Below, one piece after another: positions 57,601 to 60,600 of a DNA stretch of 64,000 nt (the first letter of the stretch is position 1; each line of letters starts with the position of its first letter). A program made the position numbers and the translations under genes. Where the stretch lies: positions 20,615-84,614 of the forward strand of contig JAZUCY010000010.1 of the NCBI GenBank assembly GCA_045639365.1, in the 5' to 3' direction. This DNA comes from Paludibacteraceae bacterium (GTDB lineage: Bacteria > Bacteroidota > Bacteroidia > Bacteroidales > Paludibacteraceae). The notes under the pieces were generated by a model. That model saw only the letters and a list, made by a program, of their open reading frames with translations. It searched no databases and was not told the DNA's origin.

Positions 57601-60600
57601 TGGCAATCGTCTCTCTATCCCTATGACACGTCATACCGATCGTGTGCGTTTTTGTGTCATTCCTACTCGTGGTGGGCAATACGCGCCAAGTGCTTCGGTG
57701 CAGTTTGATATAAACCAAGAAACTATTACTCAACCTATTGGTGCTGCTAATTACGAAGTAAAGGACTTGTCAATCACAGTTCCTTCTGTGGTTGCAAAAA
57801 CAACAGTGCCAGTAACTGGAACCGCGATAGGTAAATCCAAAGTAGAGATTTTTGATAATGATACCAAGATTGGCGAAACGACTGCTTTGGCTAATGGCGT
57901 GTGGAGCATTACTTGCGAACTCAACGAACCATACAATCTTTCCACTCATAGTATCTATGCTAAGGTCACTACTCCTCAAGGATTAGACCTACAGTCAGAA
58001 ACGATGGAGTGTATATATGATAAGAATGCGGTACAAGTTTCAAAAGTGATAATGTATCACCCTAATCCCGAATTAAACAAGACATTTGAGTCGGTATTTG
58101 ATTTCCTTAATCCCTCTTCTAAACCTAATAAATGGACAGTGTATTACCCTAAAAAAGTATTTACATATACAATCGAATTTACAAACAACTCCCCCGAGGT
58201 GGTTTCTAACGTAATACTATATGTACACACAGCGGACGGAAAGTATTTGCCTTATGATGCTACATACAATGAAGAAAAGGATTTGTGGTTTGTAGAATGT
58301 GATTTGGGAACTAAAAATGATGGATGTTATCCTGTCAATGTGAGTGTAGATTTTGATGCTTTGGTATACGGTCCAATAAGTCGAAAATCGTTAGAAGCAG
58401 CAGAATTTGACTATGTGACTCATTCTATGGCTCAGACTCAGATAGAACTATCTTTTGACAAATTAGATTCCTTGTTTTTTTTAGGAACTTTAACGGAGGA
58501 AGAATTTGACTCTTTACTAAGTACTTTGTCACATACAATATTAGATACTGATACATTTTATATGTCAGAAGATTCAGTAGCAGAAATATTGTTGCAATCA
58601 GATTTGTCATTGCTGGAGTCTGAGAATATTTTAAATGATAATAAGTGGAAGGAATTATGCCATATGAATAAATATGGTAAATTTGACTTACTCAATTACG
58701 GAATCAAGGGAACATATGAAGTCAAAACTGCAGAAGAGGTAACTATAGAGCAACTTTTAGAACGAGGATTTGAAAAAATGGTGGTTGATGATAGTTCTGA
58801 TGTATATCAACTTGTTTTAGAAAATTCATATGAAATTGTAGATTTTGCTAAAAATACATATACTATTTTATTATTTGATGCTAATAATGTCTCTCAAATG
58901 TTGCCTTCAAGAGGATTTGTTGATGGTATACAAAAATTAAAAAATGCGATAGAGCAATATGAGGCGATTATGGGAGAGTTTGCTGAACTAAGAAACAAAA
59001 TTTTAGATGCTATAGGGTCGCTTCCTGATATCTTTGAAATACGAATAGAGGAGATAGATTATACAATCAAAAAAAATAGAGCAATCTATAAAGAATTACA
59101 AAGTCGTCAAGGAACGATGCCAACGATTGAAGAAAATCTTAAAATTTCCGAACAAATTACCAAATTAAAAGGTAAAAATATTCAATTGGGAAAAGAAAAA
59201 GCTGAATTGCTCGAAAGTCTTAAAGTTACTATGAAGATGATAGAGAAGATTATGAGTTGTTTGGCAGCATTTATGGATGCATACTCTACAGGATGTAATG
59301 CTAGTGAATATATTGATTTATGGTACAGCGTACCATTTTGTAAGTGTGACTCTTTAAAAACAGTTAATTTACAAAATGAAATTTTACAAGCAGGCTTGCG
59401 TTGTGCAACTAAAGATCTTTGTAATTTAAGTGCAGATATTTATACTATTCACATGATTTTTAGTGCAATTACAATGGCACCAGTTACGACGGGTGCATCT
59501 TTGGTTTTGGGTGTTTCAGGCGTCGGTTTATCAATAATTAAAGGATATGTTAATTCTTGGGCTGACAATGAATTTAAAAAAGAAAGATCTATATTCTCAA
59601 GTAGAATAAATGCGTTAGCAAAGGATAAAAGTTGTTGGACATGTCCCGATCCTGATCCCGTTCCCAATCCAAATCCTAATCCTAATCCCAATCCTAATCC
59701 GAACCCAGAAAGAGGCGGTGAACATAAATCTGGCTCAGAGGATGACGAAGTTCAAATAGACCCCTCTGGCTATGTATATGAAGCTGTTTCTTCCAATCGC
59801 TTAGAGGGTGTAACGGCGACCTGCTACTACAAAGAAACAGTAGAAGACATGTATGGTGACTTGCATGAGAATACCGTCAAATGGAACGCCGAGGAGTATG
59901 CCCAAGAAAATCCACTCTTCACCGATGAGAATGGTATGTATCGTTGGGATGTTCCTCAAGGCCTCTGGCAAGTGAAATTCGAAAAGGAAGGCTACGAGAC
60001 CACCTATAGCGACTGGCTCCCTGTCCCACCACCACAATTAGAGGTCAATATAGCTATGAAGCAAAATGTGCAACCTAATGTACAAGCTGTTCGCGCATAC
60101 GAAGATGCTATCGAAATACAATTCGATAAGTACATGCTACCAGAACTCCTCACAACCGATAATATCATTGTAATGGCTGATACTTCTATCATTGCTGGTT
60201 CTATTCAACTAATGAATGAAGAAATCGCTTATGAAGGATTGACGGATAAGTATGTATCACATGTGCGATTCAATGCAGCAGATACATTTGCCACAGAAGA
60301 GATTACCTTATTAGTAAAAAATCGTATCAAAAGTTATGCGGGTATTCGCATGCAAGATGATTTCACCCAATCCTTCACTATCCAACAAGAGATTAAGAAC
60401 ATCGTATGTGACTCTCTAATAACAGTAATCTATGGAGAAGAGAAAAATATCAATGTGCAAGTATTACCAGCATCTGCATCAGCAGGCAAGACATTACATG
60501 TAAAATCATCTTCCCCTATGCTTCTGCAAGCAGATACAACCATAGTCTTGAATCAAGAGGGTAAAGCTGTAATTACTCTATCAGGCGAATTGCCAGGTAG

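Follow-up and report, generated by a model that had tools for sequence, protein, structure and literature searches.

The stretch of DNA analysed here, referred to below as the window, comprises 64,000 nucleotides of contig JAZUCY010000010.1 from a Paludibacteraceae bacterium (assembly GCA_045639365.1, forward-strand positions 20,615 to 84,614), and the element under study is an AT-rich cassette inside a giant open reading frame (ORF) at its end. On the + strand, the frame is open from nt 54629 to the end of the window; with the ATG at 54641 taken as residue 1, the ORF (54641..64000, +, continuing past the window end) encodes at least 3119 aa, and the cassette is internal to it. All features of this ORF given below lie on the + strand. 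The protein starts with a Sec-type signal peptide, MKKIVCLFIASLLHISMALAST (54641..54703), which was read from the sequence and holds the most hydrophobic 19-mer of the whole protein. Upstream of the cassette, Pfam recognised four Flg_new_2 domains, LRR_5 leucine-rich repeats of the BspA type, a CarboxypepD_reg-like domain and Big-like/Ig-like beta domains. Downstream, a linker leads to a conserved 112-aa domain, after which come Ig-like domains, Fn3_assoc/CHB_HEX_C_1, a second LRR_5 block and 49-aa Cys repeats; no Pfam domain was found within aa 1240-1830. A first-pass annotation, made by a model from the letters of the window, had placed the cassette in an adhesin-like giant protein bearing a signal peptide, and this placement is supported.

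The GC content over 58400-59640 was 31.2%; the parts of the ORF lying upstream and downstream of it had 39.2% and 40.9%, and the window as a whole stood at 43.1%. This is the lowest value among all 1241-nt windows of the 64-kb stretch (fraction at or below, 0.0008). The low GC reported in the first-pass annotation was therefore found again, and its figure of about 29% is fair as a local value, the 100-nt bins inside the segment spanning 20% to 37%. GC at third codon positions (GC3) was 22%, versus 31-34% in the flanks, so that the dip is not a matter of amino-acid composition alone. Comparison with homologs placed the natural borders of the cassette at nt 58349-59644. On its left, the conserved upstream beta domain ends with the motif PVNVSVDF (58331..58354); the module itself (58349..59644) encodes 432 aa, aa 1237-1668, which matched no known family. 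It is followed by a Pro/Asn-rich low-complexity linker (59645..59758), at the place where homologs carry a Pro-, Gly-, Asp- or Cys-rich linker, and then, as right border, by the conserved 112-aa domain DPSGYVYE...LPVPPPQL (59759..60094). Part of the linker is encoded by an in-frame hexanucleotide repeat at 59644-59700 (TCCTAA/TCCCAA units, 6.5 copies, giving (Pro-Asn)n), slippage in which could change linker length without a frameshift. One homolog (L005:8510-10000) has, instead of the Pro/Asn linker, some 90 residues densely packed with CxxC/CxC repeats (CPKCHKKPCECEKPCPVCNHKPCICC...). No second copy or silent cassette of the module was found within the 64-kb window.

Relatives of the module were searched exhaustively with phmmer among 1.84 billion representative proteins. 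Fifteen proteins were matched, of which 13 are true relatives: P0001 and P0002, with module identities of 45-46% and 42-43%, and others at 21-28%. In all 13, the module sits inside a giant protein (about 1900-2750 aa) or a truncated gene call. Its 450-480 or so residues are bordered on one side by a beta domain with PVNVSVDF at its end, and on the other by a low-complexity linker and then DPSGYVYE. The window ORF has both conserved flanking domains in the same order, with the module between them, and module length is kept at 430-480 aa among relatives of the window's module type. A first metagenome scan for near-identical modules found none, and a second gave two loci (L081 and L082) at 41-42% identity.

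The 112-aa domain is 65-84% identical among homologs whose modules share only 15-46%, and has 47 invariant columns among 14 proteins, other parts of those species' proteins being 40-60% identical. It matched nothing in Pfam, nor in the PDB by sequence, and is the best marker of the giant family. A scan with this domain, limited to one genome per species, yielded at least 591 confirmed loci, of which 80 were retrieved for study. Nearly all of the 80 are labelled Bacteroidales (Prevotella, Bacteroides, Paraprevotella, Alloprevotella, Phocaeicola, Muribaculaceae and Paludibacteraceae). Among the Bacteroides carriers are B. stercorirosoris, B. cellulosilyticus DSM 14838 (L032) and B. timonensis (L023), the last two being cultivable, as is a further carrier, Prevotellamassilia timonensis (L052). 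Two loci, L045 and L064, come from metagenome-assembled genomes labelled Firmicutes (Oribacterium sp. and Lachnoclostridium sp.), probably through binning contamination or mislabelling; L064 is a short, 938-aa version that begins inside the module. As for export, the N-terminal Sec signal peptide of type IX secretion system (T9SS) cargo is present in the giant ORF, as judged by sequence and hydrophobicity, and the T9SS sorting domain Por_Secre_tail was found (E of 0.01 or less) in 44 of 69 complete homologs, and also in P0005 and P0003. Full-text literature searches returned no description of the giant family or of the helical module.

Between its two conserved borders, the slot varied in length from 17 to 676 aa. 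Single-linkage clustering of the slot modules by BLAST gave one internally mosaic cluster of 58 and six smaller ones, that is at least seven types unrelated in sequence, and many modules resembled that of the window over the N-terminal subdomain only. Giant genes devoid of the cassette, for which the first-pass annotation had proposed a survey, do exist: in three loci (L049, and also L047 and L067), only 17-23 residues separate the PVNVAVEY beta domain from DPSGYVYE. Over 2415 pairs of loci, mean identity was 47.6% for the flanks and 18.5% for the module, with a Spearman coefficient of 0.11 between the two, and 115 pairs combined flanks at least 62% identical with modules below 25%. The window illustrates this decoupling on both sides: the loci nearest to its scaffold (L036, L014 and L001, about 57-65%) have modules only 20-24% identical to its own, and the carriers of the nearest modules (P0001, P0002, L081 and L082, 41-46%) have more distant scaffolds (42-51% for P0001 and P0002). 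No pair among the 2415 had a module more than 10 points above its flanks. Pairs whose flanks are more than 90% identical kept a module identity of 80-98%, which points to faster, gradual divergence plus replacement. A diversity-generating retroelement or programmed hypermutation was considered and rejected on account of these same close pairs; no reverse transcriptase was detected with Pfam among nine large neighbouring ORFs, the window not having been searched exhaustively for one.

The base composition follows the same site. A GC dip at the slot was present in 58 of 60 loci (mean, -8.4 points) and a GC3 dip in 57 of 60 (mean, -17 points). Since the dip is shared in this way, it marks a family-wide cassette site and not a one-off insertion. 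We conclude that the cassette at nt 58349-59644 represents one version of a hypervariable, AT-rich slot located at a fixed position in a large family of giant Bacteroidales surface proteins. Of the earlier proposal that the segment was acquired separately and fused in frame, the separable cassette stands, given the decoupled similarity, the empty and alternative slots and the GC3 dip; the one-off acquisition does not.

We next turn to the module itself. The peptides quoted in the first-pass annotation were all present: two heptad-like ones, IQKLK...NKILD at aa 1430-1456 and KLKGK...IEKIM at aa 1508-1538, and the apolar 35-mer IHMIF...KGYV at aa 1603-1637, which falls exactly at nt 59447-59551. 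Around the latter, aa 1600-1633 form a 34-residue run that lacks D, E, K and R altogether and abounds in Gly, Ser, Thr, Ala and Val. With a Kyte-Doolittle score of 1.77, the 19-mer at aa 1615-1633 is surpassed within the protein only by the signal peptide; the one ranking after it has 1.45. Summed over this 19-mer, the free energy of translocon insertion has a positive, approximate value of +2.5 kcal/mol, which is compatible with passage through Sec. The count of cysteines had to be corrected: where seven within about 70 residues had been announced, we found six in 55 residues (1540, 1552, 1567, 1569, 1588 and 1594), plus C1665 and C1668. C1567 (nt 59339), in a short helix and Cys loop (LW..VPFCKC, 59288..59350), was invariant in every alignment made. 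The second invariant Cys belongs to the motif C-W-T-C (59633..59644), and is C1668 according to MAFFT or C1665 according to hmmalign. C1567 and C1665/C1668 bracket the base of the hairpin described below.

An AlphaFold2 (AF2) model of the full module was obtained from an alignment of 14 sequences, with residue 1 of the model at aa 1237, and reached a predicted local distance difference test score (pLDDT) of 79 and a predicted template-modelling score (pTM) of 0.71. In model numbering, it comprises helices over 12-96, a six-strand beta subdomain at 110-176, a disordered loop at 180-191, two long helices at 193-253 and 260-313, the short helix and Cys loop, a helix at 335-375, a turn at 376-382 (TTGAS) and a last helix at 383-424. 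In window coordinates, the predicted N-terminal helices (aa 1248-1332, 58382..58636) are poorly conserved. The small beta-rich subdomain (aa 1346-1412, 58676..58876) forms a conserved island, with G1376, Y1389 and V-D-F around aa 1400-1402, and is common to 58 of 76 slot modules, some of which have a different C-terminal half. Then come the long, charged, antiparallel and heptad-like helices H1 (aa 1429-1489) and H2 (aa 1496-1549), together at 58925..59287, which are the most variable part of the module. The terminal hairpin (59351..59620) is made in the model of H3 (aa 1571-1611), a turn (aa 1612-1618) and H4 (aa 1619-1660), with amphipathic, charged bases. As modelled, the module has two parts, the N-terminal helices with the beta subdomain on one side, and on the other an elongated antiparallel bundle of four long helices ending in an apolar hairpin tip. 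The first-pass annotation, in which the cassette was mostly helical, was right about the long helices and had overlooked the six-stranded beta subdomain.

In the AF2 model, the apolar tip (aa 1600-1633, 59438..59539) takes in the last 12 residues of H3, the turn and the opening 15 residues of H4. Charged residues are found at the helix bases, six in H3 and eight in H4, and none in the tip, in agreement with the initial description of an apolar stretch flanked by charged helices, the stretch being in the model the tip of a helix-turn-helix hairpin. The turn itself reads P-V-T-T-G-A-S-L in the window, for a consensus of A-P-x-T-G-G-x-S-L. Over 37 full-length relatives, this turn was the most conserved element (1.67 bits, versus about 3.0 for H1 and H2), followed by the Cys loop, the C-terminal end and the beta subdomain, with the two bracketing Cys invariant. 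Uncharged runs of 25 residues or more were present at the equivalent position in 38 of the 76 slot modules, 19 of which had one of 30 or more, so that the apolar tip is common among modules, not universal. When the C-terminal half was modelled alone, from an alignment of 12 sequences, the topology was unchanged and the confidence lower, the pLDDT of the tip falling to 55-62.

Searches of Pfam, NCBIfam and PHROGs gave nothing significant, either for the module of the window or for 65 slot variants. In the latter, no recognisable toxin domain was found with Pfam and NCBIfam, only scattered coiled-coil noise. Sequence searches of the PDB, single or with a profile, returned coiled-coil noise at E values of 0.001 or worse (designed bundles, heptad repeats of viral fusion proteins, SNAREs). 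Foldseek gave no match at an E value of 0.001 or better for the full module against the PDB and BFVD, nor for the C-terminal half against the PDB. Below significance, the ApoL family of Pfam appeared at E 0.023 over some 27 residues of the apolar stretch only, and the NCBIfam model MakE at E 0.045, with 12.7-13 bits for a cutoff of 360, over 26 profile positions of the same stretch. Ssp4 of NCBIfam matched, also without significance (E 0.15-0.18), over the Cys loop and hairpin. Among the 65 slot modules, one matched HlyE (E 0.0031) and one MakA (E 0.0029), no further alpha-pore-forming toxin model being present among the matches listed (up to 25 families per scan). Weak matches of single slot modules to surface proteins with coiled coils were also seen, with PspA at 3.3e-06 and an IgA-binding protein at 2.7e-05.

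In terms of fold, AhlB, SmhB and MakA were found with the full module at E 0.9-1.6, with TM-scores of 0.14-0.20, and were not among the 50 best PDB matches of the C-terminal half. The latter resembled generic elongated bundles (BAR domains, designed bundles, chemoreceptor sensors) at E values of 0.07 or above, the best being the amphiphysin BAR domain (E 0.11, TM-score 0.49-0.53). No Xax or Yax structure was among the 50 best PDB matches listed in either search, and the colicin pore-forming domain gave no Pfam match at E values up to 1. The first-pass annotation had seen in the cassette the design of pore-forming toxins of the ClyA/Hbl/XaxAB type, and had suggested a structural comparison with alpha-pore-forming toxins. 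That comparison gave at best E values around 1 with TM-scores below 0.2, and neither it nor the MakE score of 12.7 bits against 360, nor the helix order, which differs, reveals any kinship. The module is not a member of the ClyA, Hbl or XaxAB families.

The likeness to the ClyA superfamily (ClyA/HlyE, Hbl, Nhe, MakA/B/E, AhlB and SmhB) is one of general shape, with a long antiparallel helix bundle and at one end a compact apolar element of some 30 residues, many of them small; secretion is also shared, and there are the weak sequence signals to MakE, MakA and HlyE (E 0.003-0.05). In ClyA-type proteins, the apolar element is in the middle of the sequence, with two helices after it. In the module, by contrast, it lies between the third and fourth long helices, with a single helix after. 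The module further differs by a tip that AF2 makes helical rather than a beta tongue, by its extra beta subdomain and its invariant Cys pair, and by being internal to a protein of more than 3000 aa, when ClyA-type proteins stand alone at 35-40 kDa. XaxAB and YaxAB are encoded by two adjacent genes for partner subunits, and the module is a domain of one giant ORF. With the insertion domains built around a hairpin (colicin pore-forming domain, diphtheria toxin T domain, Bcl-2, apolipoprotein L), it shares an uncharged helix-turn-helix of about 34 residues amid amphipathic, charged helices. Those domains, however, are globular bundles of 8-10 helices wrapping the hairpin, whereas the module is predicted to be a long four-helix rod, and its TGGxSL turn and Cys bracket have no counterpart in them. 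From colicins it differs in addition by the lack of the ten-helix bundle and of any immunity gene found beside the giant genes. Ssp4-family type VI secretion system (T6SS) effectors are, like the module, mainly helical, with apolar helices and no fold match in the PDB. Ssp4 is nevertheless a stand-alone T6SS effector with an adjacent immunity protein of four transmembrane helices, and no such partner was seen for the module.

At the scale of the whole gene, the arrangement recalls polymorphic toxin systems, with a conserved scaffold, a sharply delimited and exchangeable module of distinct composition, incongruence between module and scaffold, and some empty slots. The variable module is however internal and not C-terminal, and no adjacent immunity gene or array of orphan modules was found. 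The scaffold resembles BspA-type, T9SS-anchored adhesins by its Sec signal peptide, LRR_5, Ig-like and Fn3_assoc/CHB_HEX_C_1 domains and, in homologs, Por_Secre_tail, and departs from them by the central helical module and the DPSGYVYE domain, both devoid of a Pfam model. The giant protein can be described as a mosaic surface protein whose exchangeable module is an unclassified helical-hairpin domain.

The neighbourhood of the giant genes was analysed at 62 homologous loci. Paralogous ORFs for giant surface proteins were found upstream (60 cases) and downstream (37 cases), all on the same strand, which indicates that the giant genes occur in tandem arrays; the other neighbours were housekeeping genes. 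These large paralogs make up the only neighbour cluster conserved across many loci, the other clusters looking like artefacts of antisense ORFs. At the loci with the closest modules, the downstream genes were housekeeping or unrelated ones. No conserved small ORF that could be an immunity candidate was found next to the giant genes at the loci examined.

What does the module do? The reading we favour, to which we give a probability of roughly 40%, is that of a membrane- or lipid-engaging hairpin displayed at the cell surface and placed under diversifying selection. The giant protein would be exported by Sec, fold and form its disulfides in the periplasm, then cross the outer membrane via the T9SS and be anchored by its C-terminus, the flexible linker tethering the helical module. 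The N-terminal LRR and Ig-like array would bind a target surface, with the apolar tip covered in the resting state, probably by the conserved beta cap. Upon contact, the tip would dip as a helical hairpin into the bilayer of a host cell, another microbe or a vesicle, to act there as an anchor or perturbant of the membrane. The rest of the module would be diversified by arms-race selection and by recombination between its conserved flanks. The apolar arms of 12-15 residues (about 18-22 Angstrom) fit a monotopic, half-spanning insertion better than a full transmembrane pore. By analogy, the module may act like the apolar hairpins of alpha-helical membrane-inserting proteins, of whose families it is not a detectable member. 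The ApoL, MakE and Ssp4 signals on the apolar stretch all come from membrane-active proteins and speak weakly in favour of such a role. Ssp4 itself, a helical pore former, had no sequence match or PDB fold match before it was tested (PMC12669606), and by this precedent a lack of homologs is compatible with pore formation.

Several observations weigh against the membrane-engaging hairpin. No family of membrane-inserting or pore-forming proteins resembles the module significantly in sequence or fold, and the nearest structural neighbours are soluble or peripheral elongated bundles, including the trypanosome haptoglobin-haemoglobin receptor and Borrelia surface proteins. The confidence of the tip is only moderate, around 70 in the full model and 55-62 without the N-terminal half, and the apolar arms as modelled lack the length needed to cross a bilayer. 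In roughly half of the slot variants the corresponding run is shorter or less apolar, and the three loci with an empty slot indicate that the scaffold works without a module. No immunity-like gene adjoins the giant genes at homologous loci, the window itself ending before the stop codon of its giant ORF, so that its own downstream gene is unseen. For the same reason the C-terminus of this ORF, and with it any T9SS domain, lies outside the window.

The module could instead be a variable surface stalk or decoy, that is an elongated coiled-coil spacer under selection from host immunoglobulin A (IgA), phages or competitors, in which the tip is an interface for docking or oligomerisation and never meets a membrane. 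The tip would then pack on the conserved beta cap, on the neighbouring conserved domain or on sister molecules, and the module would be likened to the hypervariable helical regions of bacterial and protozoan surface proteins. This is the principal alternative, to which we give a probability only a little below that of the favoured reading. It accounts for a module far more divergent than its flanks, with H1 and H2 the most variable, for the GC3 deficit of 57 of 60 loci, which fits fast, mutation-biased evolution, and for the gradual divergence plus replacement suggested by the closest pairs. The trypanosome receptor and Borrelia proteins near the C-terminal half, and the weak, single-member matches to PspA and an IgA-binding protein, go in the same direction. 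So do the co-conservation of the tip and beta cap as islands, the loss of tip confidence when the N-terminal half is removed, the absence of the module from some homologs and the lack of an immunity gene. Less easily explained by a stalk are the 34 charge-free residues rich in Gly, Ser, Thr and Ala, which would be unusual in two of the four helices of a soluble bundle, and a hydrophobicity that stands out in the whole 3119-aa protein. Conservation is moreover highest in the turn itself rather than along one helix face, and the weak family signals on the apolar stretch are all from membrane-active proteins. A true alpha-helical pore-forming payload, cytolytic or antibacterial, carried by a T9SS scaffold as an internal toxin domain in the manner of polymorphic toxins and possibly freed by cleavage of the linker, appears distinctly unlikely. 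Several features would suit a toxin: the module varies on a delivery scaffold that is conserved, its apolar helical hairpin lies close to its C-terminal end with a flexible linker behind it, and there are weak matches to MakE, MakA, HlyE, ApoL and Ssp4. The sorting signal of T9SS cargo must remain C-terminal, and a payload would thereby be forced into an internal position. Helical pore formers can also be without a detectable homolog (PMC12669606). Against a toxin stand neighbours that are giant paralogs or housekeeping genes with no immunity-like gene among them, and the absence of any significant sequence or fold match to ClyA, Hbl, Nhe, Mak, Ahl, Smh or colicin, as of Xax or Yax among the 50 best Foldseek matches. 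The arms are short, the alternative modules hold no Pfam toxin domain that can be recognised, and the slot is empty in some loci.

Two further explanations have little left for them. A recent foreign insertion, unique to this gene and joined to it in frame, agrees with the lowest GC of the window and a GC3 down to 22%, and is very improbable, being largely refuted by the occupied slot with its GC dip (58 of 60) and GC3 dip (57 of 60) at homologous loci of many genera, and by the module length kept at 430-480 aa in relatives of the window's type. The window holds no second copy or silent cassette. A module exceeding its flanks by more than 10 points was seen in no pair, which speaks against recent transfer between the species sampled. 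An extremely improbable reading is that the two apolar helices are a stop-transfer hairpin, and the protein anchored in the inner membrane instead of being secreted. There are indeed two adjacent apolar helical segments, and 1.77 on the Kyte-Doolittle scale exceeds the classical threshold of 1.6. Each arm, however, has 12-15 residues only and the summed insertion free energy is positive (an approximate value), homologs carry the T9SS C-terminal sorting domain, both flanks are Ig-like or beta-rich extracytoplasmic domains, and the invariant Cys pair with the many other Cys fits an oxidising compartment.

Carried to its full extent, the proposal of a membrane-engaging hairpin would have T9SS-anchored giant adhesins of gut and rumen Bacteroidales display an unrecognised class of exchangeable, disulfide-bracketed TGGxSL hairpin modules, which insert into host or competitor membranes on contact, for contact-dependent attack or anchoring, with diversification by cassette and no immunity gene. 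In this complete form we consider it unlikely. Prevotella, Bacteroides, Paraprevotella, Muribaculaceae and their relatives dominate the communities of the human and ruminant gut. Newly defined here are a family of at least 591 loci in species-representative genomes, a bounded hypervariable slot with a base composition of its own, and two unannotated domains, the variable helical module and the adjacent, extremely conserved domain of 112 aa. Membrane engagement by the tip would give T9SS cargo a novel mode of action on host or competitor cells; failing that, the slot still clearly marks strong diversifying selection on a structure of the cell surface, useful for strain typing and for studies of gut immune and phage pressure.

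Beyond the module, the giant ORF of the window (at least 3119 aa) is longer than its homologs (1900-2800 aa). After Fn3_assoc, where several homologs stop with a T9SS sorting domain, it goes on with the second LRR_5 block and the Cys repeats, window positions 61900-64000 corresponding to aa ~2419-3119. The repeats are tandem units of 147 nt (49 aa) at 63173-63966, with at least 4.7 copies and 81% matches; they continue past the window end, and degenerate copies are found from about 62500. Their consensus, CDSYTWNGETYTxSGEYVYTTTAANGCDSIVTLHLTIN, has two Cys per unit and causes spurious Pfam matches to ATE_N. Elsewhere in the window, two very large ORFs of 1686 and 1586 aa, at 15642-20702 (-) and 21119-25879 (-), have a near-zero Pfam match, with only a sub-threshold FlgD_ig. 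Directly upstream of the giant ORF lies a gene for a 1337-aa LRR_5 protein of the BspA type (50610-54623, +). Just upstream of these two LRR genes, a cluster resembling a mobile element extends over 45172-49798, and includes a VapE-like gene (45172-46704, -), a polyvalent-protein kinase (47467-48273) and a YhcG/DUF1016 nuclease of the PD-(D/E)xK type (48698-49798).

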